A stretch of 20,000 bases of DNA, from sequence record DRR378314_2238; one strand, 5' to 3'. The translations under genes were made by a program, and so were the position numbers. Below the pieces are notes generated by a model that was not told the origin of the DNA, ran no database searches, and saw only the letters and a list, made by a program, of their open reading frames with translations. Of the stretch, positions 2,354-19,914 are shown piece after piece; within the stretch, counting starts at the first letter, position 1, and every line of letters starts with the position of its first letter.

Positions 2354-2454
2354 CGACAGGCGCGCCCTAGCTGTGTATGTAAGGGACCGGCGGGGGGTTT
2401 GAAACAAGGGTTTGGCAGCGACAGGTCAACTAAACCTATGAAAGATAGTTGAAT

Positions 2455-3360
2455 ATGACGAAGAGACGTTCAATCGTGACCGGTGCGTTAGTCGCAGATG
2501 CAGCCTCGCTGGGGCTGCATTGGCTTTATGACCAAGCGCGTATTCAAAAACTGGTCGGACAGACCCCTGAATTCTGTGCTACCACTGCAGCAGATTTCGA
2601 AGGTGTGCCGTCCTATTTTGCACACCCGCTGAAGCAGCCCGGCGACCTTAGCCAATATGGTGAACAATGCCTTGTCCTGTTACGTGCTTTGGCGTCCCAG
2701 CGGGGCGCATACGATCAAGAGGCTTACAATAATGCCTTCGTTTCGCATTACGGATATGGCGGCACCTATTGTGGCTATATCGATGGGGCCACGCGTGGCA
2801 CGCTGGACAACCTTGCCAATGGAAAATCGGATCAGGTGCTTGGCGCACAGGACACTCAATTGCCTGCAATTGCGAAACTTCCGCCCCTGATCGCAGCGGG
2901 GCAGGAGGCACATGCAGAAGAAGCAATTCGCACAACCAATCAGACTGATCTTGCTTTGTCCTACGGCCGTGTTGCCTGTGCGATGCTGATCGCCGCACGA
3001 GACAACGGGACTGTCGGCGATGTGGTCGAGGCTGCGTTTGAAGCGGCGGATAACAACACACGGCCAACGCTGGAATTGGCGCGCGCCTCTACTGATCGGG
3101 ACACTTGCAAATTCACTGAAGAAGTCGGGATGTCGTGTGAGTTGGAATATGGCTTGCCCAGTGTTCTTCATAACCTGTTGACAGCCAAGACGTATCAGGA
3201 GGCCATTCGAACGAATATCCTTGCGGGTGGTGATAATTGCGGTCGCGCTATTCTTCTAGGTGGGGTACTTGGTGCAACCCATGGCATTCCGGAAAGCTGG
3301 GTGTCGAAGGTCCATTCCATGGACGAGGTCGAGGACCTGTTTGAAAAACTGGGCCTCTGA
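2455..3360 (+). CDS. ADP-ribosylglycohydrolase family protein, atypical (SelJ/J1-crystallin-like)
   Basis: N-terminal GALVADAASLG, C-terminal NILAGGDNCGRAILLGGVLGA..GIPESW. The canonical TDD and DxDT metal motifs are replaced. Start is ATG 2455 (TTG 2449 is an alternative). Confidence 0.8.
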   Translation: MTKRRSIVTGALVADAASLGLHWLYDQARIQKLVGQTPEFCATTAADFEGVPSYFAHPLKQPGDLSQYGEQCLVLLRALASQRGAYDQEAYNNAFVSHYGYGGTYCGYIDGATRGTLDNLANGKSDQVLGAQDTQLPAIAKLPPLIAAGQEAHAEEAIRTTNQTDLALSYGRVACAMLIAARDNGTVGDVVEAAFEAADNNTRPTLELARASTDRDTCKFTEEVGMSCELEYGLPSVLHNLLTAKTYQEAIRTNILAGGDNCGRAILLGGVLGATHGIPESWVSKVHSMDEVEDLFEKLGL

Positions 3361-3419: not shown

Positions 3420-3734
3420 ATGGGGGTCCGCGGCGTTAAGTGTGCCCGGAGAAGCGAGATCACTACGCTTGTGAACACTGCCAAAAAGCTGTTGCTACCG
3501 ATCGCAATTCTGCTGATGTTTTTGCTGTCGGTCAGCGCAGTTCCACCCTTCTACCTGGTAGAAGGGTTGGCAAACACGTTTGGCTACGAATTTTCATCAA
3601 AAGAACAATACGTTCAGAGTGTTATGATTGCGCGCGGCCTTTATACAGCCATCGGGCTTATGATCGTCATTTGGATAGGATGGTCGGTTGTTCGGATGGG
3701 GCATAAAAACTCCCGAAATTCCTCGGATATCTGA
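3420..3734 (+). CDS. Hypothetical small membrane protein (two hydrophobic segments)
   Basis: KKLLLPIAILLMFLLSVSAVPP and GLYTAIGLMIVIWIGWSVV segments. Start uncertain (GTG 3471 is plausible). Confidence 0.5.
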   Translation: MGVRGVKCARRSEITTLVNTAKKLLLPIAILLMFLLSVSAVPPFYLVEGLANTFGYEFSSKEQYVQSVMIARGLYTAIGLMIVIWIGWSVVRMGHKNSRNSSDI

Positions 3735-3858: not shown

Positions 3859-4758
3859 ATGCGAACGTGGCGGATAAATAGTACGGCTTCGGGACTGCGG
3901 AAATGGCAGGATGGCTTGGCTTCTGCGTTCGTGCGTCTTGATGCCCAAGCCGTCGGAAACCACGATTTTGTCGGCAGGATCGAGCAAGCCCATCTTCCGA
4001 CCGGGCAAGTAAGCCGGGTTCGTGCCGCTCCTCATCGGGTGCTGCGGCGTTCGGAACACGTCGCGCGCAGGCGACGGGATCTGGTCTTTGCCAATCTCCA
4101 ACTGTCAGGACGTGGTTTGGTCGAGATGCCCCAAGGCCGCTACGAAACTGCACCGATGGATTTGTGCTTGGTTTCGACGTCTGAACCGTATTCGATCACC
4201 CATACTGCACCATTTGAATTGATCTCGATCGCAATTCCGCAAGATGCTCTCCCAGCAACACTTGATCCTGGTATTCTGCGCCTGTCTCAAAGCGCTGCTG
4301 GCCGCGAATTGGCAAATGTTCTTGCCGGGCTTGGCGCGTTGGCCTTGCAGCTACCTGCGGCCAACGATGCGTTGAATGCACAGATCCTCAGCACTTTGTC
4401 GCTTGTCACACAGGTTTCTGCGGAAGAAACCGACGACATCGCGCTGCTGGAGGCGATTCAAGCGCATATTGCACGATGTCATATGCAACCAGAGTTATCA
4501 GCGGCGCCGTTGGCCGCGTCGTTTGGGATAACCGAGCGTAAAATACACGCATTGTTTGAAGAAACAGGTCAGACGGTAGGTTCCCGTATCGAGGCTGCGC
4601 GCCTTGCAACGGCGCAGTCGCTGCTGGAAACTACCGACCTGCAAATCTCAGCCATTGCCGCGCGATCAGGTTTCCGCGACCCCAGCTATTTTGCACGCGT
4701 CTTTCGTCGAAAGCATGGGGTAAGCCCGGGCACTTGGCGCGCTGCACAATTGTCCTGA
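3859..4758 (+). CDS. AraC family transcriptional regulator (FeaR-like N-terminal ligand domain)
   Basis: C-terminal double HTH (LSAAPLAASFGITERKIHALF; ISAIAARSGFRDPSYFARVFRRKHGVSPGTWR). The N-terminus has the FeaR-type pattern W...AFV.L...F.GRI...HRVLR...ANLQLSG. Confidence 0.9.
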   Translation: MRTWRINSTASGLRKWQDGLASAFVRLDAQAVGNHDFVGRIEQAHLPTGQVSRVRAAPHRVLRRSEHVARRRRDLVFANLQLSGRGLVEMPQGRYETAPMDLCLVSTSEPYSITHTAPFELISIAIPQDALPATLDPGILRLSQSAAGRELANVLAGLGALALQLPAANDALNAQILSTLSLVTQVSAEETDDIALLEAIQAHIARCHMQPELSAAPLAASFGITERKIHALFEETGQTVGSRIEAARLATAQSLLETTDLQISAIAARSGFRDPSYFARVFRRKHGVSPGTWRAAQLS

Positions 4759-4782
4759 TCGCTCGCATCATTGTCCGCATCG
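4744..4782 (+). promoter_or_regulatory. Putative AraC-type tandem operator (21-bp period) upstream of the flavoenzyme-amidase operon
   Basis: gcacaattgtcctgatcg (4744-4761) and gcatcattgtccgcatcg (4765-4782), 14/18 identical, offset exactly 21 bp. aggagg RBS at 4815-4820. Confidence 0.5.
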
Positions 4783-4825
4783 TGTGTGCCAAACTTCTAC
4801 GCGTTAGCAGTTGTAGGAGGCACCA

Positions 4826-5827
4826 ATGCTGAAAACCCGTTTGACCGAACGCTATGGCGTTAGACATCCCTTCGCCCAAGCTGGCATGGCGTTTGCCGGT
4901 GAAAAGCCTGAGCTGGCTCAGGCTGTGGGGCAGGGCGGTGGAATAGGTGCGATCGGTGTCGGCTTCCTTCCACCTGATGAACTGCGCGAACATATCGCCA
5001 AGCTGCGCGACGCGGGCAAGCCGTTTAACATCAATTTTATCACGTGTTTCGGCAATGATGAGCAGGTCAAGGCAACTGCCGGTGAAAAGGTCCCGGTGGC
5101 CTCGTTCCACTGGGGGTTGCCACCGGATGATCAGGTCAAGATACTGAAGGATTCCGGCGCGGATATCTGGGTGCAGGTCGGCACAGTCGAAGACGGTGAA
5201 AAAGCTGTCGAGCTTGGCGCGGATCTTGTCGTGGCGCAAGGCTGGGAAGCAGGCGGCCACAATTACGGTGGAATGGGATCGATGGCGTTGGTGCCCGCAA
5301 TGGTCGACGCGATCGGTGATAAGGCTATGGTATTGGCTTCGGGCGGGATAACAGACGGGCGCGGCGTAGCAGCGTCGCTGGCACTGGGGGCGGACGGCGT
5401 GTGGGTCGGCACGCGTCTGGTCGCGACCAACGAGGCTTGGGTCCATCCCGAACATCATACCCGCCTTGTCGCCGCATGTGGTGCTGATACAACCCGATCG
5501 GGTGTGTTCGGCCCGGAAATGCCGGATTTTAACCCCATGCGTCTGATGCGTGTCCGACCAACTGAAGAATTCGAAGGCCGCCTGGAAGACGTGCCTAAGG
5601 ACCGCGCGAATGAACCGGTGATCGGCCAGACGCAGTTCCTGGGCCAACCGCATGAAAAGCGCCGTTTCGACGTGATCCTACCCACGCCGGATACCACAGG
5701 AGATTATGAGGAAATGGCCTGGCTGATGGGTCAAGGTGTGGGTTTGATCAAGGATATCCAGCCAGCCGCCGAGATTGTCGAGGAAATGATGGCCGACGCC
5801 GCACGCATACTTGGGGCAGCACAGTGA
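4826..5827 (+). CDS. Nitronate monooxygenase (2-nitropropane dioxygenase)/FabK-like FMN-dependent oxidoreductase
   Basis: N-terminal MLKTRLTE..G..HPFAQAGM, VAQGWEAGGH (conserved His), ASGGITDGRG and GADGVWVGTR FMN-phosphate motifs, C-terminal GQGVGLIKDI. Strong RBS. Confidence 0.9.
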   Translation: MLKTRLTERYGVRHPFAQAGMAFAGEKPELAQAVGQGGGIGAIGVGFLPPDELREHIAKLRDAGKPFNINFITCFGNDEQVKATAGEKVPVASFHWGLPPDDQVKILKDSGADIWVQVGTVEDGEKAVELGADLVVAQGWEAGGHNYGGMGSMALVPAMVDAIGDKAMVLASGGITDGRGVAASLALGADGVWVGTRLVATNEAWVHPEHHTRLVAACGADTTRSGVFGPEMPDFNPMRLMRVRPTEEFEGRLEDVPKDRANEPVIGQTQFLGQPHEKRRFDVILPTPDTTGDYEEMAWLMGQGVGLIKDIQPAAEIVEEMMADAARILGAAQ

Positions 5828-7029
5828 CGGCACTTATCCGCGAAACGAATATCAAAGGCGCCGATTCTGGCGCCTTGCTTGGCGAAACGCTGGCCGTCAA
5901 AGCCAATGTTGCAATCGCCGGTTTACCGTGGGACGGCGCATCTCCGGCGTTGTCGAAGGTTGTCAGCAATGGTCACGCATCAACTGTTGACCGCGCACTG
6001 GCTGCTGGTGCGACGATTATAGGGCAGGCCAATATGCACGAACTTGCGTTTGGCATCACATCTGACAATGCACATTTTGGAGCTGTCGCAGGCCCGCATG
6101 GTGCCATGGCAGGTGGTTCGTCTGGTGGAACCGCTGCGGCAGTGGCGGCCGGCTTGGCGACCATGGGCTTGGCTTCTGACACCGGCGGATCAGGTCGCCT
6201 TCCAGCCGCGTTCTGCGGATGTATTGGCTTTCGCCCGTCTGCCGGGCGCTATCCGGGTGATGGCGTACTGAACCTGTCGATTTCGTTGGATACGATCAGC
6301 GCGATGGCACCGGATATGGACAGGTTGACCCGGCTTGATTCAGCACTGGCCGATGACAAGCCCTCAGAGGCCAGGCCACTCGAAGGTCTTCGACTGGGCC
6401 GTGTTCAATCCGTGTTCTGGGACAATGTCGACAGCCGCGTTGCAGGGCCGGTTGAAGCGGCAATCGAGAGATTGTGTGCCGCAGGAGCGGTGATCGAAAC
6501 ACGCGATGCCCCCGATTTGCACCAGGCGATGGAGGCCATCTCACTTCGGATTGTCATCGCCGAAGCCAAGCGTTGGTGGACATCTTTTCTAGAGCGCGAA
6601 CTTCAACTGGACATCAGTGATTTCGCTGACCAAATCGCCAGCCCCGACGTTGCCGGAATCTTCCGCGAGATTGCCGCGGATGAGACCACCGATTCAGAAC
6701 TGCAGTCCATGCGTACGCAGGGTCGCGATAAGGTATGCGAAATTCTGGAAACCGCGATGGATGGGTTGGATGTGCTTGTCTACCCAACCGTTCCGATAGC
6801 TGCCCCCAAGCTGCATACCGAGGAAGTCCAGCTGAACGGCAAGAGCCACGCCCTGTTCCCACTTCTAACTGATCGCGCCCTTGCAGCATCACTGTCCGGA
6901 AGCCCTGCAATCAGCTTGCCGATATCGGGGTTTGATGATCGTCCCTTGGGGCTGGAGCTAATGGCCCGCCGAGACGATGACCGCAGATTGCTTGGTTGGG
7001 CCACTACCATCGAACAGCTACTCTCCTGA
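5824..7029 (+). CDS. Amidase-signature enzyme, indole-3-acetamide hydrolase (IaaH)-like
   Basis: Lys26-Ser99-Ser123 triad (AVKANV, GGSSGG, DTGGS). KAN, NMHELAFGITS, RYPGD and SPDVA segments match IaaH/Tms2-type amidases as I recall them. GTG start overlaps the upstream TGA (GTGA). Confidence 0.85.
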   Translation: MTALIRETNIKGADSGALLGETLAVKANVAIAGLPWDGASPALSKVVSNGHASTVDRALAAGATIIGQANMHELAFGITSDNAHFGAVAGPHGAMAGGSSGGTAAAVAAGLATMGLASDTGGSGRLPAAFCGCIGFRPSAGRYPGDGVLNLSISLDTISAMAPDMDRLTRLDSALADDKPSEARPLEGLRLGRVQSVFWDNVDSRVAGPVEAAIERLCAAGAVIETRDAPDLHQAMEAISLRIVIAEAKRWWTSFLERELQLDISDFADQIASPDVAGIFREIAADETTDSELQSMRTQGRDKVCEILETAMDGLDVLVYPTVPIAAPKLHTEEVQLNGKSHALFPLLTDRALAASLSGSPAISLPISGFDDRPLGLELMARRDDDRRLLGWATTIEQLLS

Positions 7030-7324
7030 TCTTCGTTTCAGCAGCCGGGTGGTCGTTACAATATCCCATTTTCCGACACGATTACCCACTGCTGGCGCAT
7101 TATGTTTAGATCGTCTTGAGTACAGCATTGCGATCCACGATCCGAGTGATGGATGCAACCTTTACGCGCCCATCCGGATGGTTGGTGCACATTGGGTGCG
7201 GATTGGTTGATTGGTCTGGAATTGCCGTACAAGTCGGTTCTGGTGCCGGGCATGAAAGCCACAACTTCGCTCAACCCGCGAAGAAGGCGATGGCGATAGG
7301 GCTATTCATATACAGCCTGGGCCG

Positions 7325-7954
7325 TCAGTTCGTCTGAGGGTAGCTGATGACCGAGATATAGCGTGCTGGCAACTTGACCAATCGTTCTGGTCCATGTGGG
7401 GCATCTGCGTCAAAAAACAGAGTATCGCCCGGTTTCAGCGGGTAAATTTGATCCCCATGTCGATAGTCAACCTCGCCTTCCAACATGTAAATCGTCTCGA
7501 TTCCGCCATGCTGGAAGGTTGGAAATACATCCGATTCTGCTGTTAGAGTGATCAAATAGGGCTCGACTATCACGCCCGATCCATTGGCTCCAATATGTCC
7601 CAGCAGGTTGTATTGGTGGTTGGCGCGGGTTCCTTCACGTTCCAGCTCTATGCCTTCACCAGCTTTTGTGTGCACGGCTTCCCGGCGTTCCTCGAACTGC
7701 CTAAAGAAGCTTGTCAATGGAACTGATAGGGCATCGGCTAGAGATTGCAGTGTTGTCAATGAAGGCGATGTATTGCCGTTTTCGATTTTCGACAGCATTC
7801 CGATCGACAGACCAGTTAACTGGGCAAGTTCAGCAACCGTGATGTTTTGCTGTTTGCGAAAGGCCCGAACTTCGCGCCCGATCGCAACTTCAAGCACTTT
7901 CTCACGTTCGCCTGCTCGAACGGAATGCGGATCCTGTGTCAGATTGGCCGCCAT
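7325..7954 (-). CDS. XRE family HTH + cupin transcriptional regulator
   Basis: ITVAELAQLTGLSIGMLSKIENGNTSPSLTTL HTH. Cupin motifs FQHGGIETIYMLEG and PGDTLFFDADAPHGP. ATG 7954 (MAANLTQDPH) preferred over 7999. Confidence 0.9.
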   Translation of the reverse strand: MAANLTQDPHSVRAGEREKVLEVAIGREVRAFRKQQNITVAELAQLTGLSIGMLSKIENGNTSPSLTTLQSLADALSVPLTSFFRQFEERREAVHTKAGEGIELEREGTRANHQYNLLGHIGANGSGVIVEPYLITLTAESDVFPTFQHGGIETIYMLEGEVDYRHGDQIYPLKPGDTLFFDADAPHGPERLVKLPARYISVISYPQTN

Positions 7955-8073
7955 ATCGGTGTCGCGTTTTTTCAATTCTGCACTTTCAGCGTATCGCACT
8001 ACATGGCGTGTTTAGTCCCGCAATCGTGCGCTGTGCATTACATATATCAATCCGGGCTACCATAGCGCCAATG

Positions 8074-8088
8074 TTTCCTGATAGTAAA
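8074..8088. promoter_or_regulatory. Candidate palindromic operator between the divergent regulators
   Basis: tttcct-gat-agtaaa, 5 of 6 positions pair. It sits directly upstream of ATG 8095. Confidence 0.3.
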
Positions 8089-8094
8089 ATAGTC

Positions 8095-9099
8095 ATGCTG
8101 ATAGACAAAAGAACTGAGATCGGATTTCTGCTGTTCGACGGTTTTCCAATAGCCTGTCTGACCTCGATTGTAGAACCTTTGCGGGCAGCGAATGAGATCG
8201 CAGGGCAAGAGGCCTTTTGCTGGTCTCTGGTTTCCGAGCTCGGGCAGAAGGTCAAGTCCAGCGCCAATATCGGGTTCGAGGCTGATCGCGATCTATCTGA
8301 TTGCCAATCAATGGATATTCTATTTCTCCTCAGTAGTCCCGTGGCCGGGTTTGGCGATCCGAAACAGGGAAATGGCACATTGCGAATGTTGGCCCGGCAT
8401 GGAACCACTCTTGGCGGCATCAGTGGCGGTGTTTTTCCGTTGGTCCGGTCCGGGGTTATGACCGGGCGTCCGGTTTCTGTTCACTGGTGTTATGAAGCTG
8501 CATTTGAAGCTGAGTTTCCGGACATGGATGCCCGCCGCGAGGTGATCGTATCCGATACCAGCCGTTATACCGCTGCTGGAGCTGCGGCAGCGTTTGATCT
8601 GGCGCTTCATTTGATCGAAGACCGTTTGGGCAGTGATATCGCGCATGAGGTTGCCTGCTGGTTTCAACACCCGATGATGCGGGGGGAAGGCGTGCGCCAA
8701 CAGGTTCCTAATGTCCGTCATTCAGGTTCCGGTGATAAACTACCACCGCTTGTAGCCAAGTCGGTCGAGCTGTTTGCAGGAAATGTCGGTCAGCCCATAA
8801 CAATCGCTGAGGTTGCGCATCAGACTGGTGTCACCCCACGTCAGATCGAACGCGCGTTTAAGCAGGCCACCGGGTTAAGCCCTAGCCATTATTACCGCGC
8901 GATGCGGATGAAGGCGGCCCGGCAGATGGTCGTCTATACAAAAGATCCGATCCCCGAGATTGCTGCGGCAATTGGATATAGTTCGGTCGCGCCATTAGTG
9001 ACGCATTATCGCGCAGCCTTTGGGCTGAGCCCCAGCGAGGATCGCCGTCGGATCAACCGTTTTCGGGTCGAAGACAACGCTCCACTACCCTCTGTTTGA
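8095..9099 (+). CDS. GlxA family transcriptional regulator (DJ-1/PfpI domain + AraC HTH)
   Basis: IGFLLFDGF...VEPLRAANEIAG, GGISGGVF, SVHWCYEAAF, AAAAFDLAL, and a C-terminal AraC HTH (PRQIERAFKQATGLSP; IAAAIGYSS). Start is 8095 or 8071. Confidence 0.88.
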   Translation: MLIDKRTEIGFLLFDGFPIACLTSIVEPLRAANEIAGQEAFCWSLVSELGQKVKSSANIGFEADRDLSDCQSMDILFLLSSPVAGFGDPKQGNGTLRMLARHGTTLGGISGGVFPLVRSGVMTGRPVSVHWCYEAAFEAEFPDMDARREVIVSDTSRYTAAGAAAAFDLALHLIEDRLGSDIAHEVACWFQHPMMRGEGVRQQVPNVRHSGSGDKLPPLVAKSVELFAGNVGQPITIAEVAHQTGVTPRQIERAFKQATGLSPSHYYRAMRMKAARQMVVYTKDPIPEIAAAIGYSSVAPLVTHYRAAFGLSPSEDRRRINRFRVEDNAPLPSV

Positions 9100-9107
9100 T
9101 CCGCGTG

Positions 9108-9668
9108 CTAGAGCGCAGAGTTCATCGCGGCGATAATTGCGTGCTGCAGGGTGCGTGCTGAAGATCGAGGACCGTAGATGCTGAACACATCGGCTGACCG
9201 GCACAGGACAAAACACCCGAGATGATGGATCGAGGTGCGCGCGGCATCCCCTTCTGCCATTTTTCTGCAATCCAGGTTGCACAACAGTTCCAGCACCGCC
9301 CGTACATCGGGGCCCTCCAGGTCAAACCGGGTCCACGCATCTGTTTGCTCGGACACGGAAGCGGCGTCTTTGACGTGGCCTTTCACCATCGACGCAAGGT
9401 CTTCATGTGTCTCGAAGGGTGCCTCAAGCATCCATTGCTCGGGTCCGGTCCAGAAAGCTTTGACCGTATGACCGGATGTCTGTCCGATGTCGGGCGCAGT
9501 ATGCCCGGTCAAGGTAGCCAACGCGGTCCGTGTTTCGGCCTCATGCCACAAACGCGCAGCGACCGAAGCCAGCGCGATATCGGGGTATTCGCGACAGGAC
9601 ACGCTACCAACCGTACAAGATTCCGGGCCGGTTCCACCAAGTGCGGTTAATGCGACAAGATCATGCAC
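9108..9668 (-). CDS. soxG: Sarcosine oxidase family gamma subunit
   Basis: FWTGPEQWML, SVSEQTDAW, GPRSSA motifs. GTG at 9668 overlaps the soxA stop. Last gene of the BDAG operon. Confidence 0.88.
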   Translation of the reverse strand: MHDLVALTALGGTGPESCTVGSVSCREYPDIALASVAARLWHEAETRTALATLTGHTAPDIGQTSGHTVKAFWTGPEQWMLEAPFETHEDLASMVKGHVKDAASVSEQTDAWTRFDLEGPDVRAVLELLCNLDCRKMAEGDAARTSIHHLGCFVLCRSADVFSIYGPRSSARTLQHAIIAAMNSAL

Positions 9669-12606
9669 GAAGCCGTTCTCCCTGTGGATCGACAAAATGG
9701 GCCGAGACGATTTCAACTTCGACGGTCAGTTCAGTCAATGGCGAAACAAGCCGCATCTTTTCACCCTGGCGCTCGCCACCGTTCTTTAAAAAACCAAGAC
9801 CGATATGACTGTCCAGAGACGGTGAGAAAGCCGCCGATGTGATATAGCCCTGATCATTAGCGGCATCCACAGGACCCGAGGCATTCATCAGATGGCCCCC
9901 GGCGGTTACCTTATCGCCTGAGTTAACTGGTTTGACGCCGACCATCATCAATGCGTCTGGTTGGTTCAGTCCCTCGCGCTCGGACAAGGTCGCGCCGATG
10001 CTGTCTTTCTTTTTTGACACCATCCGAGCCATTCCAAGGTTTAGGGCTGAGGTGGTTCCGTTCAACTCGTTGCCCGCCGCGTGACCCTTTTCGATCCGCA
10101 TGACACTCAAGGCTTCGGTGCCGTATGGTACAACGTTGAACTCTTCACCCTCCCGCATCAGGCGCCGCATCAAGGCATCGCCATAACGGGACGGAACCGC
10201 GATTTCAAACGCCAGCTCGCCCGAGAACGAAATACGAAACAGACGCGCCCGCAATCCGCCGCAAACAGTGACGTTGCCACAGCCCATGAAGGGGAAGCCT
10301 TCGTTTGAGATATCGAATTCGGGGTCCACGATCTTTTGCAGAAGTTTGCGCGAATTTGGCCCTGCGACAGCGTATTGCGCCCAGGCTTCGGTGGTCGAGA
10401 TTAGTTGTACGTCCATATCCGGGAATAGGCATTGCCGGACGAATTCCATGTGTTGATAGACTTTGACAGCGTTGGCCGTTGTGGTTGTGACAATGAAACG
10501 ATCCTCGGCTAGCCGCGCAGCGGTGCCATCATCCATCGCAATGCCATCTTCTCGTAACATCAGGCCATAGCGGGTTTTACCCACCGCGAGTTTGGCAAAG
10601 CCGTTGCAATAAATCCGGTTCAGGAAATCCGCTGCATCGGTGCCTTGTACGTCAATCTTGCCGAGCGTGGTGCAATCGCACACCCCGACCGAAGCGCGGG
10701 TCTGACGCACTTCGCGGTCGACGGATTGACGCCAATGCGTTTCACCCGGCAAAGGAAACCATTGCGCCCGTAGCCAATTGCCGACCTCGACAAACACCGC
10801 GCCCCGCTCTTTGGCCCAATAGTGCGAAGGGGTCAGGCGGGTAGGGTGAAACTCCTGCCCTTTTAGACGTCCGGCAAAGGTTGCAATTGGGACAGGCGTG
10901 TAGGGAGGGCGGAAAATTGTGGTGCCGGTTTCAGGAATGGATTTTCCAGCAAGTTCGGCCATGATCGCCAAACCACCCATGTTCGACGTCTTGCCCTGAT
11001 CGGTTGCCATGCCCAGCGTGGTATAGCGTTTGAGGTGTTCGACCGAACGGAACCCTTCCTGATGGCTAAGCTTCACGTCTTTGACGGTCACGTCATTCTG
11101 TTGGTCCAGCCATGCCCGCGAACAGCCCTGCACATACCAGAATGGCGCCTGACGGACCGGCATATCCTCGGCTTCGGGCAAAGCGGGTAGGTCACCTTTC
11201 AGTTCAAGTGCCTGCGCCGCACCTTGGGCGCCAGATTGTAGGGCGCCATAAGTGGTCATGATACCGTTTGCAGCCCCGGCGACTGCCAGACCCGGAGGCA
11301 GCGTTTCTCCGGGGACGAAAGCGGACAGGCCCTCATCCCATGTTGGTCGGCCACGCTGATGGCAGGTCAGGTGTACATTCGGATTCCATCCACCCGAGAC
11401 GCCAAGCGCCCCAACATCCAGAGTGCGGTTCGAGCCGTCGGCTAAACCGACTTCGACAAAAGCCAAGCCAAGGCGGCCTTTGGTATCGATCACCTGTGCG
11501 CCGCGCAGTACTTCGTAATCACCGCTTGTTGGTGCATCTGTCCGCACATCGACAACGGCGGCGATTTTCACTCCTTTGGCATGCAAGTTGGCGGCAGTTC
11601 GGTGACCATCATCATTATTGGTAAATATGGCCACGCGCCGGGCAGGGGTGGCGGCGAACCGGTTAGCGTAGCTGCGCAAGGCACCTGCCAGCATGATGCC
11701 GGGTCGGTCGTTGTTTTCAAAGGCGATCGGACGTTCGGTCGCCCCTGCACATAAGAGCGCGCGCTTGGAATAGATGCGCCACAGGATCTGTCGGGGTTTG
11801 CCTGTGGGCAGGTTGGCCAGATGGTCGCCCGCCTGTTCTACTGCCCCGTAAATCCCGTGATCGAAGGCACCGATGATTGTGGTGCGCGGCATCAGGCGAA
11901 CATTGGGCATCGCCGACAGCTCCGCCACCGTTTGCGCCACCCAGATTTCAGCCTGATCGTCGTTCAGCAAGAAACTCTCGTTGTTCAAACGACCGCCGAG
12001 GACGAAATCTTCATCCGCCAAAATCACCTCTGATCCGGCCCGTCCGGCAGTCAGCGCCGCCATCAATCCAGCCGGGCCCGCGCCGATGATCAACAGGTCG
12101 CAATGTCTGAACCCCTTGTCGTACTCATCAGGGTCGTCCTGCATCGACAATGTGCCCAATCCAGCAGCTCGGCGGATCAGTGGTTCATAAAACTTTTCCC
12201 AGAACACCGCCGGCCACATGAAGGTTTTGTAGTAGAAACCCGCAGTCAGAAAGCCCGACAACTGGTCATTGATCGCCAGCGCATCAAATTTCAGGCTGGG
12301 CCAGCGATTCTGGGAATGGGCTTCGAGCCCGTCAAACATTTCTATGGTCGTGGCGCGGGTATTGGGTTCTTTCCGACTGCCCTTGCGCAATTCAACCAGT
12401 GCGTTGGGCTCCTCCGACCCCGCACTCAGAACCCCGCGCGGACGGTGATACTTGAAAGACCGCCCCATCAGGCGCACGCCATTGGCCAAAAGGGCCGATG
12501 CCAGAGTATCGCCTGGATGTGCCGTGTAATTGCGGTTGTCGAATTTGAAATTCAGGGTTTTGGTACGATCAATCTGGCCGCCGCCCAACCGGTTAACTTG
12601 TGTCAT
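9661..12606 (-). CDS. soxA: Sarcosine oxidase family alpha subunit
   Basis: GDTLASALLANG, RSFKYHRPRG, AGFYYKTFMWP, IIGAGPAG, EHLKRYTTLGMATDQGKTSN, and a C-terminal GcvT-like folate domain (RISFSGELAFEI, RIEKGH). ATG 12606 overlaps the soxD TGA. Confidence 0.95.
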   Translation of the reverse strand: MTQVNRLGGGQIDRTKTLNFKFDNRNYTAHPGDTLASALLANGVRLMGRSFKYHRPRGVLSAGSEEPNALVELRKGSRKEPNTRATTIEMFDGLEAHSQNRWPSLKFDALAINDQLSGFLTAGFYYKTFMWPAVFWEKFYEPLIRRAAGLGTLSMQDDPDEYDKGFRHCDLLIIGAGPAGLMAALTAGRAGSEVILADEDFVLGGRLNNESFLLNDDQAEIWVAQTVAELSAMPNVRLMPRTTIIGAFDHGIYGAVEQAGDHLANLPTGKPRQILWRIYSKRALLCAGATERPIAFENNDRPGIMLAGALRSYANRFAATPARRVAIFTNNDDGHRTAANLHAKGVKIAAVVDVRTDAPTSGDYEVLRGAQVIDTKGRLGLAFVEVGLADGSNRTLDVGALGVSGGWNPNVHLTCHQRGRPTWDEGLSAFVPGETLPPGLAVAGAANGIMTTYGALQSGAQGAAQALELKGDLPALPEAEDMPVRQAPFWYVQGCSRAWLDQQNDVTVKDVKLSHQEGFRSVEHLKRYTTLGMATDQGKTSNMGGLAIMAELAGKSIPETGTTIFRPPYTPVPIATFAGRLKGQEFHPTRLTPSHYWAKERGAVFVEVGNWLRAQWFPLPGETHWRQSVDREVRQTRASVGVCDCTTLGKIDVQGTDAADFLNRIYCNGFAKLAVGKTRYGLMLREDGIAMDDGTAARLAEDRFIVTTTTANAVKVYQHMEFVRQCLFPDMDVQLISTTEAWAQYAVAGPNSRKLLQKIVDPEFDISNEGFPFMGCGNVTVCGGLRARLFRISFSGELAFEIAVPSRYGDALMRRLMREGEEFNVVPYGTEALSVMRIEKGHAAGNELNGTTSALNLGMARMVSKKKDSIGATLSEREGLNQPDALMMVGVKPVNSGDKVTAGGHLMNASGPVDAANDQGYITSAAFSPSLDSHIGLGFLKNGGERQGEKMRLVSPLTELTVEVEIVSAHFVDPQGERLRA

Positions 12607-12890
12607 TTGGAACGCCCTCGTGTCCGGGCAACGTCGCGGGCCAGCTCCACCCTGGATATCTCGTGCGTAACCGTGTTGCGTGTTACGACCAGCCAGGATC
12701 GATCTCCGCCTTCGTGAAACCACAGCTCGCGATGTTCACCGGCGGGGTTGTCGCGCAGATAAGCATAATCATGGAAGGCTTCGGCTGCGTTTTCGGCCTG
12801 CCAGTCGGGCCGATCAATCAGAGACGCGTCGCCCAGATAGACGAACTCGGAACTGTCGCGGGGACCCAGCAAAGGATGTTGGATGATCAT
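12603..12890 (-). CDS. soxD: Sarcosine oxidase family delta subunit (Cys-free variant)
   Basis: GPRDSSEFVYLGDA, YLRDNPAG.HRELWFH, W..VTRNTVTHEI. Lies between soxB and soxA, with RBS gagga before ATG 12890. Confidence 0.92.
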   Translation of the reverse strand: MIIQHPLLGPRDSSEFVYLGDASLIDRPDWQAENAAEAFHDYAYLRDNPAGEHRELWFHEGGDRSWLVVTRNTVTHEISRVELARDVARTRGRSK

Positions 12891-12903: not shown

Positions 12904-14154
12904 TCAGTGCAGATTGGGCTGGTTGCCCATACCTTTTTCGTCAATCATCCGTCCGGTACGAAACCGGTCAAGGCGATAGGCGGTTGCGGTTGGGTGGGGT
13001 TCGTCCTTTGCCAGCAGATGAGCGAAACAATGGCCCGACGCCGGAGTGGCCTTGAAGCCGCCATAGCACCAGCCGCCGTTGAAATAGAGCCCGTCAATAT
13101 GGGTCCGGTCGATGATGGGCGAGCCGTCCATGGACATATCCATGATCCCGCCCCACATGCGCAGCAGACGTGCGCGTCCGATCATTGGCATGAGCGCCAT
13201 ACCGCCTTCGCAGACATCTTCGACCACGGGCAGATTTCCGCGTTGCGCGTACGAATTGTACCCGTCCAGATCACCCCCGAACACCAGGCCGCCTTTGTCG
13301 GATTGACTGACATAAAAATGTCCGGCACCAAAGGTGATCACACCTGGCAGCAGAGGTTTCAGCCCCTCCGAGACAAAGGCCTGTAGAACGTGGCTTTCTA
13401 TTGGTAGTCGCATGCCTGCAATACCCATCAGTCGCCCCGAATTCCCTGCGACAGCACAGCCTACTTTGCCCGCTCCGATAAACCCTTTTGAGGTTTCGAC
13501 GCCCAGACATCTACCATTTTCGATGCGGAAGCCGGTGACTTCGCAATTCTGAATGATATCGACGCCATTCTTGTCTGCCGAACGAGCATATCCCCATGCC
13601 ACTGCATCATGGCGAACAGTGCCGCCGCGCCGTTGTGCCAGTCCGCCTTTGATCGGGAATCTTGCATTGTTGAAGTTGAGAAAAGGGTATTCCCTGCGCA
13701 CCTGATCGGCATCCAGCAACTCGGCATCCGCGCCGTTCAGGATCATGGCATTGCCGCGTCGCGTGAAGGCATCCCGTTGGGCATCAGAGTGGATCAGATT
13801 GATAATCCCACGCTGACTGACCATCGCGTTATAGTTCAGATCCTGCTCCAGACCCTCCCACAGTTTCAGAGAGAACTCGTAGAATGGTTCATTTTCGTCC
13901 AACAAATAGTTCGAGCGGATGATGGTGGTGTTGCGCCCGACATTGCCTCCGCCGATCCAGCCCTTCTCGATGACGGCGACGTTGCGATGGCCATACACCT
14001 TGGCAAGGTAATGCGCCGTCGCTAGCCCGTGGCCACCACCCCCGATGATTACGATGTCATACTGCGGCTTGGGCTCAGGGTCGCGCCACGCAGGTTTCCA
14101 GCCTTTGTGACCAGTGAGCGCCTCTTTGATAACTTGAAAGCCAGAGTATCGCAT
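12904..14154 (-). CDS. soxB: Sarcosine oxidase family beta subunit
   Basis: IIGGGGHGLATA FAD motif, GNVGRNTTIIRSNY, RHDAVAWGYAR, LQAFVSE, GGFKATPASG. Confidence 0.95.
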   Translation of the reverse strand: MRYSGFQVIKEALTGHKGWKPAWRDPEPKPQYDIVIIGGGGHGLATAHYLAKVYGHRNVAVIEKGWIGGGNVGRNTTIIRSNYLLDENEPFYEFSLKLWEGLEQDLNYNAMVSQRGIINLIHSDAQRDAFTRRGNAMILNGADAELLDADQVRREYPFLNFNNARFPIKGGLAQRRGGTVRHDAVAWGYARSADKNGVDIIQNCEVTGFRIENGRCLGVETSKGFIGAGKVGCAVAGNSGRLMGIAGMRLPIESHVLQAFVSEGLKPLLPGVITFGAGHFYVSQSDKGGLVFGGDLDGYNSYAQRGNLPVVEDVCEGGMALMPMIGRARLLRMWGGIMDMSMDGSPIIDRTHIDGLYFNGGWCYGGFKATPASGHCFAHLLAKDEPHPTATAYRLDRFRTGRMIDEKGMGNQPNLH

Positions 14155-15052: not shown

Positions 15053-16084
15053 TCAACTTGGCAGCCGTCTACCTGTTTCTGGGTCAAACAAGTGCATCTG
15101 CTCTGACGCGATCGAGAACCGAACGGTCGGATGTCTATCTTCAATTGGATGAACACCAGGAAGACTGGCGGTCATCATATCCTGCGTACCGGTCAACCGT
15201 CCGTGCAGCAGTGTGTTTGCTCCCAAAGGTTCGGCCATTTGAACCGCAACTTCCAGCGGGCCATTTTCATCCAGCGACAAGTGTTCGGGCCGAATTCCCA
15301 GCTTCACTGACATATCTAGCCCTTGCGATGGACCAATTTCCAGACCTTCGAATTTGATCATCCCGCCTTCACGCCGCGCGTCAAAGACATTCATGGCTGG
15401 GCTGCCGATGAATTGAGCTGCAAACAGAGTTTGCGGGGTCTCATAGACATCCAGGGGTGTTCCGATTTGCTCGGCAATGCCGCCGTTCATCACGATCATT
15501 CTATCCGCCATCGTCATGGCTTCGACTTGATCATGTGTGACATACAGAGATGTAATTCCAAGCTTTTCCTGAAGTTCACGAATTTCCAGACGCATCTGAA
15601 CGCGCAGTTTCGCATCAAGGTTTGAAAGCGGCTCATCAAATAGAAACACAGCCGGTTCGCGGACAATGGCGCGGCCCATCGCAACCCGCTGCCGTTGCCC
15701 GCCAGACAATTGGCGGGGTTTACGATCCAGTAAAGCTTCAAGTTGCAACAGCTTCGCCGCTTGGTTCACCTTTTGATCGATCTCGGACTTGGGCAATCCG
15801 GCGATTTTCAATCCATATCCCATGTTCTGTCGCACGGACATATGCGGGTAAAGTGCATAGTTCTGGAACACCATAGCGATGTCCCGATCCATCGGTTCTT
15901 TGTCATTTGCCCGCTCATCACCGATCCGGATTTCGCCTGCTGTCACAGTTTCAAGACCCGCCACCATGCGCAGAAGCGTAGATTTACCGCAGCCCGAAGG
16001 CCCGACAATCACTATGAATTCACCATCGGCGATATCAATGTCGATGCCATGAATGACGTCTGTGGCCGAGCCTTTGATCAGCAC
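15053..16084 (-). CDS. ugpC: sn-glycerol-3-phosphate ABC transporter ATPase with native N-terminus lost (possible pseudogene)
   Basis: Walker [11 protein letters not shown]-loop [19 protein letters not shown], Walker [22 protein letters not shown]. The first about 6 codons (VLIKGS) look like ugpA sequence fused at about 16066. Confidence 0.85.
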
Positions 16085-16320
16085 GTCTGCAATAACCTAA
16101 AGAAACAAGACCGGGATCATTGAGCATAGTGTCACAAACGTCGAGAAGATCGCTGTTGTCGCGATTGACGCGCGATAGAACTTGTCGCTGAGAAGGAACT
16201 CGAAGTTGCCAAGCCCGACGAACTGAGACAACAGGCCGAACGGGTCAGGAATGAACAGCGACCGCCATATTGGCTGCGCTGCTGGAAAAAAGAAAAACAC
16301 AGCAGAGGCGATCACCTGCG
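16067..16320 (-). pseudogene. ugpA: Internal fragment of G3P ABC permease
   Basis: PQVIASAVFFFFPAAQ..W.SLFIPDPFGLLSQFVGLGNFEFLLSD...TTAIFS...[13 protein letters not shown]. No start codon, in-frame TAG at 16097-16099, only about 85 codons. Confidence 0.85.
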
Positions 16321-16781
16321 GCCCGTGCAGATGACTTACCATCTTTTGCCCAGTCGCCCATCGCATTCAGTTGTGCCGCCTGCACTAGACCGTTCAATAT
16401 CAACTCGGTATCTAGACCAGTAAAGCCATTATCCTTCGACGCAGATGGCACATCGTGATTAACCGACATGTTTTCCAGATGAATCCAGCTCTGCCATGCT
16501 GAGACCAGCGGGCATTCTTCACCGCCTTCTTTCAACTGATCAAGCACATCACCAACTTTCTCCGATGTTGAAAGGTCGGTGTCTGTATCAGCTCCTGCCG
16601 CCTCCATGGCATCGCGGTTGACCCATAGAACCGGCGTGGATGAGTTGAACTCTTCAACCTGTGCTTTCACCAGATCACCAAGACGGCCCGTAAAGGCATG
16701 CCAGAATTGGACTTCGGTTTGCGCCATTGCCGCCACAAAGGACAAGACAGTTGCTACGGCGAGAGCGCCATACCCTAAGAA
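16321..16781 (-). pseudogene. ugpB: Deleted remnant of G3P ABC substrate-binding protein
   Basis: Signal peptide remnant FLGYGALAVATVLSFVAAMAQ, then EVQFWHAFTG, FNSSTPVLWVNRD, WQSWIHLEN, KDNGF.G, WAKDGK. Native start missing, internal deletion, C-terminal half missing. Confidence 0.88.
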
Positions 16782-17676: not shown

Positions 17677-17937
17677 TTGCCAACCCTTCGGAAATTCGCG
17701 CTATTCTCGGGTTTGATTGCGAAATCATCAACGATTGCTCAGATTGGGTCGACCCGTTTCAACAAAAAAAATATCCACTTGAGACTTCGACCCGCTTTAC
17801 GATGTACCACTTTGGCGGCACAGTATCGGTAATCTCAACCACAGTTCGACGCTTGATCGGCTTAGGTGATCTTTAGTCATCATTGTTACATTCACCATCT
17901 AAGTGGCGTATCGAACATATTCCAAGAAAGGTGTCAC

Positions 17938-19914
17938 ATGCCCTTTTCCAGCCGTAATGTTTCTCGCCGTCAGTTTCTTGCCACCACAACGGCCAGTGCA
18001 GCCGCAATCACACTGCATCCGTTTTCCGCATCAGCCGCCAACAATCAGGCGCACCTGAGGATCATGGAGACGACCGACATCCACGTGCATGTCTTCCCGT
18101 ATGACTACTATGCCGACAAACCTCGGGACACGGTGGGACTGTCGCGTACTGCATCGATTATCAATGACATTCGTTCCGAAGCGACAAACTCGATTCTCGT
18201 CGACAACGGTGACTTTTTGCAGGGTAATCCGATGGGCGACTACATTGCCTACGAACGTGGAATGAAGGCGGGTGACAGCCATCCGATCATCGCTGCCTTC
18301 AATACTGTTGGCTACGATGCGGCCACCTTGGGCAACCATGAGTTCAACTACGGCCTGGAATTTCTTGACAAGGCACTTGCCGGGGCCGAGTTCCCTGTGG
18401 TTCTCGCCAATATCGCCAAGAAGAAAGGGGCCAATCCACGCGACGACGAAACTTTGGTAAAGCCCTACGCCATTTTGGATCGGGAGATCGAATTGGGTGA
18501 CGGTTCGAAACATCCGATCAAGATCGGTGTCATCGGGTTTACTCCGCCACAAGTCATGAATTGGGATCGCAAACATCTCGAAGGCAATGTTGAGGCCCGC
18601 GATATCGTCGAGACGGCCAAGGCATACGTACCTGAGATGAAAGAGCAAGGATGTGATCTGATCATCGCGCTGTCGCATTCAGGTATTGGTGAGGCAGATC
18701 ATTCGGAGGGGATGGAGAATGCCTCGGTCGTTCTTGCAGGGGTAGACGGGGTTGACGCGTTGGTCACCGGTCACAATCATCTGGTCTTCCCCTCGCCAAC
18801 ATTTGCAGATCGGCCCGGTATTGACGTGGAAACTGGCACGCTGATGGGTAAGCCTGCGGTCATGGGTGGATTTTGGGGGTCACACCTTGGTCTGCTTGAC
18901 CTGCTGTTGGAAAGGGATGGTAATGAATGGCACGTGGTTACAACTACGTCAGAAGCGCGGCCTATCTCAAAACGGAACGAGGATCGATCAATTACCGCTC
19001 TGGTTGGTGATGATCAGAAGGTTCTCGACTCGGTCGCAAAAGATCACGATGAAACACTGGCCTATGTCCGTCGCGCTGTAGGCAAGACCTCGGCCCCGCT
19101 TCACAGCTATTTCGCATTGGTCGCGGATGATCCGTCTGTGCAGATCGTTTCGATCGCGCAGAAATGGTATGTCGAACAGATGTTGAAAGGGACCGAGCAT
19201 GAGGGATTGCCAATCCTGTCTGCGGCGGCCCCTTTCAAGGCCGGAGGGCGTGGCGGTCCCGAGTATTACACCGACGTGCCGGTCGGGGACGTAGCGATCA
19301 AGAATGTCGCCGATCTTTATCTGTATCCAAATACTGTACGAGCGGTTCGCGTGAACGGCGCGCAGGTCCGAGGTTGGTTGGAGCGATCGGCTGGTATGTT
19401 CAACCAGATAGATACCGGCTCAACAGATGCAGTGCTTTTGAACCCAGAGTTCCCGTCTTACAATTTCGATGTAATGGACGGTGTGACCTATCAGATCGAT
19501 CTGTCCCAGCCTTCACGATTTGGCCCCAAGGGCGAAGAAACAAACCCAGATGCAGCCCGGATTGTGAACCTTGCCCTCAACGGTGTGCCGGTTACGGATG
19601 ATATGGAATTTATCATTGCGACCAACAATTACCGTGCATCGGGCGGGGGCTCTTTCCCCGGTGCGTTGGGTGACACGGTGGTATTTGAAGCCCCGGATAC
19701 CAACCGTGACGTCATTGTTCGCTATATTGTCGAGCAGGGTACAATCAATCCCAAGGCAGATGCGAACTGGTCATTTGCGCCGCTTGCGGACACGACGGTC
19801 CTATTTGAAACCGGACCAAAGGCACGCGATTATATGAATGATGTCAAAGGCATAGCCATCGAAGATGCAGGGGAAGGTGCAGATGGATTTGCGGCGTTCC
19901 GTATAAGGCTCTGA
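17938..19914 (+). CDS. cpdB: Bifunctional 2',3'-cyclic-nucleotide 2'-phosphodiesterase/3'-nucleotidase, Tat signal
   Basis: LRIMETTDIH, YDYYADKP, DNGDFLQGNP, GNHEFNYG, SHSG, GHNH, LSAAAPFKAGGR, ADLYLYPNT, ATNNYRA. SRRQFL twin-arginine after ATG 17938, RBS aaggt. Confidence 0.95.
   Translation: MPFSSRNVSRRQFLATTTASAAAITLHPFSASAANNQAHLRIMETTDIHVHVFPYDYYADKPRDTVGLSRTASIINDIRSEATNSILVDNGDFLQGNPMGDYIAYERGMKAGDSHPIIAAFNTVGYDAATLGNHEFNYGLEFLDKALAGAEFPVVLANIAKKKGANPRDDETLVKPYAILDREIELGDGSKHPIKIGVIGFTPPQVMNWDRKHLEGNVEARDIVETAKAYVPEMKEQGCDLIIALSHSGIGEADHSEGMENASVVLAGVDGVDALVTGHNHLVFPSPTFADRPGIDVETGTLMGKPAVMGGFWGSHLGLLDLLLERDGNEWHVVTTTSEARPISKRNEDRSITALVGDDQKVLDSVAKDHDETLAYVRRAVGKTSAPLHSYFALVADDPSVQIVSIAQKWYVEQMLKGTEHEGLPILSAAAPFKAGGRGGPEYYTDVPVGDVAIKNVADLYLYPNTVRAVRVNGAQVRGWLERSAGMFNQIDTGSTDAVLLNPEFPSYNFDVMDGVTYQIDLSQPSRFGPKGEETNPDAARIVNLALNGVPVTDDMEFIIATNNYRASGGGSFPGALGDTVVFEAPDTNRDVIVRYIVEQGTINPKADANWSFAPLADTTVLFETGPKARDYMNDVKGIAIEDAGEGADGFAAFRIRL

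Follow-up and report, generated by a model that had tools for sequence, protein, structure and literature searches.

What pathway is served by a flavoenzyme and an amidase that are encoded together behind an AraC-family regulator? We asked this of the three-gene cassette at positions 3859-7029 of a 20,000-nucleotide stretch of DNA from sequence record DRR378314_2238 (the window). An earlier note, made from the sequence alone, had described the cassette as a self-contained unit for an uncharacterised amide or auxin-type pathway. We tentatively favor a different reading, which we consider quite possible: the AraC-controlled two-gene operon would be a trimmed form of a module that consists of a regulator, a nitronate monooxygenase (NMO)-like enzyme, an amidase, and a MOSC-domain protein, and that processes N-oxygenated amide-type compounds. 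The elements from which we start are these:

3859-4758 (+): gene for an AraC-family regulator (299 amino acids (aa), called as an open reading frame (ORF); Pfam AraC_binding_2 + HTH_18)
4813-4818 (+): ribosome-binding site AGGAGG, read from the sequence, with the ATG of the flavoenzyme 7 nucleotides (nt) downstream
4826-5827 (+): gene for an NMO-family flavin mononucleotide (FMN) TIM-barrel oxidoreductase, FabK/PA1024-like (333 aa; PF03060, 155 bits)
5824-7029 (+): gene for a short-form amidase-signature (AS) amidase (401 aa; PF01425, 221 bits; Lys26/cis-Ser99/Ser123)

All three genes are intact in the window. At the junction GCACAGTGACG the GTG start codon of the amidase (5824-5826) overlaps the TGA stop codon of the flavoenzyme (5825-5827) to give GTGA at 5824-5827, confirming the translational coupling that had been proposed. 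The amidase has no earlier in-frame start codon, and the start position is matched by orthologues, which open with MTALIR. The KAN, NMHELAFGITS, RYPGD, and SPDVA segments reported before are all present in the amidase, and the catalytic triad is indeed intact: K26, S99, and S123 are invariant in an alignment of 27 sequences. The protein belongs to the AS family (PF01425), with a Pfam score of 221 bits against a gathering cut-off of 27 and a GGSSGG signature alongside the triad. Its AlphaFold2 (AF2) model (predicted local distance difference test score (pLDDT) 92.1) has the AS fold, with template-modelling (TM) scores of 0.86 to amidase 2dc0 and 0.84 to malonamidase E2.

The cassette is a self-contained unit, as the earlier note had supposed, and it is conserved. 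The nearest genome compared (G001) carries the same three genes at 98-100% identity, and the AraC-NMO-amidase arrangement was also found on one metagenome contig and in G053, G232, and G389, where the identities of the three proteins are 64/88/64%, 40/73/46%, and 38/77/44%, respectively. We scored 401 genomes of the window's family, a sample and not a census, with thresholds of E <= 1e-60 for the amidase and E <= 1e-70 for NMO orthologues. Seven genomes have an NMO orthologue; an amidase gene is adjacent in six of these, and five have a MOSC gene too. Amidase matches occur in eight genomes, five of them at 47% identity or higher, and the NMO gene is adjacent in four of the five. The fifth (G193) has an amidase truncated by an insertion sequence (IS), with the MOSC gene still downstream. 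Two genomes (G318 and G292) combine the NMO gene with an amidase of another clade, a MOSC gene, and a LuxR-type regulator.

The trio or the pair recurs in a few roseobacters and in further lineages, so the linkage is real. A profile scan of genome contigs with the amidase alignment listed matches that were all at or below 42% identity (close relatives came from a separate genome search); among these listed matches, an NMO orthologue (45-66%) lay beside the amidase in 5 of 80 genome loci outside the family. The five loci are from Hoeflea (L001), Rhodobacter maris (L078), and betaproteobacteria (L033, L041, and L024), and the betaproteobacterial carriers of the pair are Zoogloea, Polaromonas, and a Burkholderiales metagenome-assembled genome. 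When metagenomes were scanned with the flavoenzyme, 11 of the 80 loci recovered had an amidase and/or a MOSC gene. A FastTree of 90 NMO proteins placed the window protein in a clade of 15 rows (support 94), all of them amidase- and/or MOSC-linked, and a 52-row clade of the same tree (95*) is entirely unlinked. The NMO-linked amidases are spread over at least three amidase clades, which fits repeated recruitment and hence a functional tie. Linkage also recurs with varied regulators (AraC or LuxR) and varied gene orders, and start/stop codon overlaps are found in L095 and L212 as well. A scan of the flanking genes revealed no recurrent transporter or extra enzyme beside the cassettes. We rejected as spurious a 150-aa ORF between the NMO and amidase genes of L212, which is Pro/Arg-rich, has no Pfam or NCBIfam match, and is confined to the G318 loci L212 and L209.

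A genome of the same genus (G308) has matches to the window no earlier than about 7365, and thus the cassette sits in a variable region. In G053 (L089, positions 5565-8138) a complete four-gene cassette lies beside genes for a TraG/VirD4-type coupling protein and a ribbon-helix-helix protein, which suggests that this copy is carried on a conjugative element.

What does the window cassette lack? In most related cassettes, the gene directly downstream of the amidase or NMO gene codes for a ~260-aa protein that has a MOSC_N and a MOSC domain (L089-L092, L094-L103, L001, L033, L041, L078, L212, and L213). The motif RT.RC.AT.VNP, including its cysteine, is kept in 10 of 10 aligned MOSC proteins of the module. 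L095-L103, L041, L033, and L078 have, in addition, a reductase of the FNR type whose C-terminal domain is a 2Fe-2S domain. The window has an NMO orthologue and an adjacent AS amidase under a dedicated regulator, and it has no MOSC_N+MOSC gene adjacent to either enzyme gene; no remnant of a MOSC, FNR, or LuxR gene was detected in the window, where the best MOSC match (E 0.019) is located elsewhere. Passages of the mARC review state that all MOSC proteins assayed to date are N-reductases, that MOSC reduction converts hydroxamic acids to amides, and that YcbX relies on a fused 2Fe-2S domain together with the flavoprotein CysJ. With its MOSC and FNR-Fer2 genes, the module of the relatives thus resembles a YcbX-type N-reductase that is split over several genes and combined with an amidase and a flavoenzyme of the NMO family. 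The electron chain would be the same as in YcbX/CysJ and mARC, on separate genes; however, the known systems are stand-alone detoxifiers and the window has no MOSC gene. The earlier note, which saw the window only, was right about the linkage of the pair but could not see what is most informative, the N-reductase gene of the related cassettes.

Where relatives carry the MOSC gene, the window has one further feature:

7119-7160 (-): possible scar of an IS3-family (rve) transposase, an 11-residue match

The translation of the scar, GCIHHSDRGSQ, agrees with GLVHHSDRGSQ of the L090 IS at 9 of 11 residues (pairwise E 1e-4), and its DNA is identical to the L090 transposase gene at 23 of 25 nt. In the L090 locus itself (G193, 7461-9535) an IS3-family element (rve, HTH_21) interrupts the orthologous amidase at about residue 118; the MOSC gene stays, and the NMO and AraC genes are gone.

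We turned to the control of the operon. The regulator had been called FeaR-like, and this holds for its FeaR-type domain architecture (AraC_binding_2 + HTH_18) but not for FeaR membership: FeaR (NF007243) gives the best NCBIfam match, but its 111.2 bits (residues 8-296) stay below the cut-off of 199. AraC orthologues (38-64% identity) occupy the same position in L089, L091, L092, L094, and L211. A repeat search identified one element between the regulator and flavoenzyme genes:

4744-4782 (+): tandem direct repeat GCACAATTGTCC / GCATCATTGTCC, candidate AraC operator

The two 18-nt units (4744-4761 and 4765-4782) lie 21 bp apart from start to start and overlap the stop codon of the AraC gene. 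A two-box pattern, G..C....GTCC at a spacing of ~21 bp, can be aligned in front of the NMO gene in all six of the AraC-bearing cassettes, and this operator-like pattern is kept although the cassette AraC proteins share only 38-64% identity. Bare GTCC-N17-GTCC is not rare (one occurrence in the window versus 0.57 expected), so that the evidence for an operator is conservation, not rarity. The repeat is thus a candidate operator of the downstream operon, to which the AraC protein may bind.

Is the flavoenzyme a nitronate monooxygenase? Its best NCBIfam model is FabK (TIGR03151), at 168.5 bits, below the cut-off of 453.1. The closest solved relatives are Thermotoga maritima FabK (5gvh, 5.8e-44, full-length alignment) and then PA1024. 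In phmmer searches, proven NMOs (4q4k and 6bka) covered only residues about 86-224 of the 333, with 4q4k confined to 86-214; the alignments omit the C-terminal part where the class I Tyr and Lys residues lie. The class I motifs of NMOs were reportedly defined by Salvi and colleagues in 2014. PMC11510023 gives the residues as Met18, Asn67, His176, Tyr297, and Lys305. The AF2 model of the flavoenzyme (pLDDT 91.3) gave a consistent order in Foldseek: FabK came first, PA1024 ranked 13, and nitroalkane oxidases and NMOs, structural neighbors with TM scores of about 0.77, appeared from rank 17, with the PA4202-type structure 4q4k at rank 32 (26% identity). With FabK and PA1024 the window protein has in common the top sequence and fold matches, the full-length alignment, the GWEAGGH motif, and TM scores of about 0.8; it differs in its identity of 27-32%, in a FabK score of 168 versus a cut-off of 453, and, for FabK, in a context of amidase with MOSC and not of fatty-acid synthesis. 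With the class I NMO of Pseudomonas aeruginosa (PA4202) it shares the Pfam family and the FMN barrel, but the sequences align over the central FMN-binding stretch only and the fold ranks below FabK and PA1024. By sequence and predicted structure, the flavoenzyme thus appears nearer to the NAD(P)H-dependent FabK/PA1024 group than to proven NMOs, and it would use NAD(P)H. The earlier description of an FMN TIM-barrel oxygenase as the partner was apt for the NMO-family FMN barrel but is not supported for the oxygenase, since the likeness to FabK/PA1024 is greater by sequence and fold. There is a precedent: bioRxiv 10.64898/2026.09.13.751228 describes the NMO annotation of PA1024 as wrong, the protein being an NADH:quinone reductase without nitronate activity.

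We then considered whether the amidase is an indole-3-acetamide hydrolase (IaaH). Its best NCBIfam model is indoleacetamide hydrolase (NF005688), at 345.5 bits against a cut-off of 532 and a runner-up of 216. The match covers positions 67-466 of the 474-position model, so that ~57 N-terminal residues are absent; the short N-terminus is common to relatives of 400-404 aa (57-65% identity) in records named Pontivivens ytuae, Roseobacter weihaiensis, and others. Identity to IaaH of the tumor-inducing (Ti) plasmid is 34%. True IaaH genes adjoin a gene for a flavin adenine dinucleotide (FAD) oxidoreductase, as the earlier note had stated and as we confirmed on the Ti plasmid and on Pantoea pPATH; the partner gene of the window amidase is of the NMO family and does not encode the tryptophan 2-monooxygenase IaaM. 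With Ti-plasmid IaaM as the query (E <= 1e-5), no relative was found in G001, G053, G232, or G016, and G389 gave a single 44-residue match.

Amidase trees (a 123-row FastTree and a quick 60-row IQ-TREE run) place the window protein in a clade with supports of 95* and 97*, respectively, and Ti IaaH (L184) in a different starred group. Wherever the context of a member of the window clade is known, that member is NMO+MOSC-linked (6 of 6, the window included, in FastTree and 5 of 5 in IQ-TREE). Pantoea IaaH is a long branch and is unplaced. An approximately unbiased (AU) test rejected a joint clade of the window group and the Ti IaaH clade (log-likelihood difference 117, p 0.0008, for a group named only after the tree was seen). 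The phylogeny thus sets the window amidase outside the Ti IaaH group, and together with the score, the short N-terminus, and the low identity it leaves the IaaH-like, auxin-type label unsupported. The K-A-N around the catalytic lysine is also found in the Ti IaaH clade (L184, L070, and L061), whereas most other relatives have K-D-N; on the amidase tree, this sharing is either an old trait or a change that occurred in parallel. NMO-linked amidases of other clades also match NF005688 best, showing that this model covers a broad subfamily. Compared with the IaaM/IaaH systems of the Ti T-DNA and of Pantoea agglomerans pPATH, the window cassette likewise has an AS amidase of this subfamily beside a flavoenzyme gene, but its flavoenzyme is an NMO-family FMN TIM barrel and theirs an FAD monooxygenase of the amine-oxidase fold, and its relatives carry a MOSC gene. 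Malonamidase E2, 2dc0, and PRK08310 have the same compact AS fold without extra domains (TM 0.84-0.86), and the window amidase matches PRK08310 (395 positions) nearly end to end; all the same, these proteins have ~36-47 extra N-terminal residues and identities of 26-29%. As a separate observation, many NMO-free amidases that match the IaaH model lie beside a gene for a LuxR-type (GerE) regulator of ~270 aa whose N-terminal part belongs to no known family, a recurrent pairing of amidase and regulator (L010, L015, L019, L020, L028, L029, L038, L051, L064, L068, L074, L075, and L086-L088).

How might the module work? In the reading that we tentatively favor, the AraC protein would sense the substrate or an intermediate and activate transcription from the tandem repeat at 4744-4782. 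The substrate would then undergo an NAD(P)H-linked redox reaction at the FabK/PA1024-like FMN enzyme, and the coupled Ser-cisSer-Lys amidase would hydrolyse the carboxamide so formed, giving an acid together with ammonia or an amine. Only in complete modules would the MOSC molybdoenzyme first strip N-bound oxygen, for example by turning a hydroxamic acid or amidoxime into an amide or amidine. The genome of the window would have lost the MOSC step, and the flavin and amidase steps alone would have stayed linked. Because MOSC proteins of the complete modules are expected to be N-reductases, the substrates are most likely N-oxygenated compounds of the amide type, and the module would serve catabolism, detoxification, or nitrogen scavenging.

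A number of observations weigh against this reading. The MOSC gene is missing from the cassettes of both the window and G001, so the idea of N-oxygen chemistry comes from relatives only (G001 has three MOSC-domain genes elsewhere in its genome), and L108 has an amidase-NMO pair without MOSC within 1.5 kb. G016 retains AraC-NMO alone (62/87%), and thus the flavoenzyme may work alone. Both the NMO and the MOSC families occur mostly outside the module: 69 of the 80 metagenome NMO loci (56-64% identity, mostly soil contigs) have no amidase or MOSC gene in flanks that reach at least 1.5 kb on both sides in 20 and on one side only in 38, and no NMO, amidase, or FNR gene was found within 1.5 kb at any of 30 loci of alphaproteobacterial MOSC relatives, which are present in 43 of 401 alphaproteobacterial genomes (tblastn identities 35-46%). 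MOSC relatives are common, and the module is thus a special assembly of generally independent parts. Fused NMO-MOSC or NMO-amidase proteins were absent among the seven longer NMO homologues returned, which is weak evidence. The margin of FabK over true NMOs is modest (32 versus 26% identity), and the flavoenzyme may yet have an oxidase role. As for the scar, Pfam detected no rve domain in window positions 7062-7301 (-), and DNA searches of G001, G193, and G053 returned no copy besides the locus itself; the scar being invisible to Pfam and without a further copy, the MOSC gene was only possibly lost from the window lineage through an IS.

Other readings account for parts of these data. In an auxin-type route, the amidase would hydrolyse indole-3-acetamide or another aryl-acetamide, and the flavoenzyme would take the place of IaaM, using an amino acid or amine to form the amide. 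NF005688 is by far the best NCBIfam model (345 versus 216 bits for the next), the unusual K-A-N is common to the Ti IaaH clade, and the FeaR-like architecture of the regulator suits aromatic substrates. However, that model is matched by all NMO-linked amidases, across several clades, with a score here under the cut-off of 532 and the N-terminus absent; the 34% identity to Ti IaaH, the separate starred groups, and the AU test with its post hoc group point away from IaaH, no IaaM relative was found in G001, G053, G232, or G016, and the MOSC partner has no place. Moreover, we know of no NMO-family enzyme that makes amides from amino acids. The cassette is probably not an auxin pathway, and this route is very unlikely. 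We also regard as unlikely a route in which the flavoenzyme, as a genuine nitroalkane oxidase or nitronate monooxygenase, would release nitrite, and the amidase would act on a nitro-amide or some product of the same compound. The Pfam NMO domain and the structural neighbors at TM about 0.77 speak for such a route, and MOSC enzymes, which in the passages of the mARC review also use N-O compounds, might share in a common nitrogen-oxygen chemistry; but 4q4k and 6bka align without the C-terminal Tyr/Lys part, FabK and PA1024 outrank NMOs by sequence and fold, and PA1024 itself was annotated as an NMO yet is described as an NADH:quinone reductase.

If the FabK-like enzyme instead reduced an acrylamide- or cinnamamide-like alpha,beta-unsaturated amide at its C=C bond, leaving the saturated amide for the amidase to hydrolyse, the full-length alignment to enoyl reductases, the closest solved relatives, and the translational coupling of the two genes would both be explained. 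Yet the FabK score of 168 bits is far under the cut-off, no cassette has a gene that handles acyl carrier protein or coenzyme A, and the recurrent MOSC and FNR-Fer2 partners are left unexplained, making this ene-reductase route rather unlikely. There might also be no shared pathway at all, with a general flavin reductase and an amidase co-travelling on mobile DNA and the window copy decaying. The module is patchy (7 to 8 of the 401 family genomes), it has mobile-element neighbors (TraG/VirD4 in L089 and IS elements in L090 and L078), its parts are lost piecemeal (MOSC in the window, amidase and MOSC in G016, NMO in G193), and most members of the NMO and MOSC families occur alone. Against this, the genes are linked again and again with amidases of different clades, under different regulators (AraC or LuxR), and in different orders, the start/stop codon overlap is seen in the window, L095, and L212, and the window genes are intact and their operator-like repeat conserved; we judge mere co-travel to be quite unlikely. 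The boldest version of the module reading is an undescribed pathway in which primary nitro or aci-nitro compounds, hydroxamic acids, or amidoximes would pass through hydroxamate and amide to carboxylate plus ammonium. The NMO-family enzyme would make or prepare an N-oxygenated intermediate, the MOSC protein would deoxygenate it, and the amidase would set nitrogen free in a usable form; the window, as a naturally occurring 'MOSC-minus' variant, would show which steps are able to stand alone. As a whole, this scheme is decidedly unlikely.

Full-text literature searches returned no description of an NMO-family flavoenzyme/amidase/MOSC module under a dedicated regulator. PMC12546762 mentions both a 2-nitropropane dioxygenase and an amidase, but as separate fungal genes. 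The single enzyme families are well known; the joint, repeatedly assembled module is new to the searched literature. In the mARC review and in bioRxiv 10.64898/2026.09.13.751228, the in vivo substrates of stand-alone MOSC proteins and of NMO-annotated flavoenzymes, respectively, are described as largely unknown. If the module handles N-oxygenated compounds, it would give a physiological role to bacterial stand-alone MOSC proteins and to 'NMO-annotated' flavoenzymes, and it would offer marine and freshwater bacteria a route to recover nitrogen from hydroxamates or related compounds. It would also be a reason not to take 'indoleacetamide hydrolase' labels in roseobacters as evidence for auxin synthesis.

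The window has other genes as well. Downstream on the minus strand lies a heterotetrameric sarcosine oxidase cluster (soxB 12904-14154, soxA 9661-12723, and soxG 9108-9716), with room for the small soxD gene between soxB and soxA. A GbdR-like AraC/DJ-1 regulator gene (7936-9099, +) adjoins it, and together they resemble a unit for the catabolism of glycine betaine and sarcosine, with no relation to the cassette. Of the left 12 kb of the window, nothing but this region is shared with the same-genus genome. The 5' ends of the GbdR-like ORF and of a PuuR-like HTH_3/cupin regulator ORF (7325-7999, -) have 64 nt in common; the alignment to the GbdR model begins only at residue 58, so the true GbdR start is probably later. 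Upstream of the cassette, an ADP-ribosylglycohydrolase-family gene (2449-3360, +) is flanked by ORFs at 756-1832, 1955-2353, and 3420-3734 without an above-cut-off family match, one of which (358 aa) has a weak SGL match (E 0.0028); these four are 97-99% identical in G001, and a match to them was not found in G308. A 166-aa ORF (16245-16745, -) beside an intact UgpC-type ATPase gene (15053-16084) covers no more of the 439-position UgpB model than positions 142-252 and is probably what is left of a gene for a substrate-binding protein. Finally, 17866-19914 (+) encodes a CpdB-type 2',3'-cyclic-nucleotide phosphodiesterase/3'-nucleotidase with a weak twin-arginine signal match.

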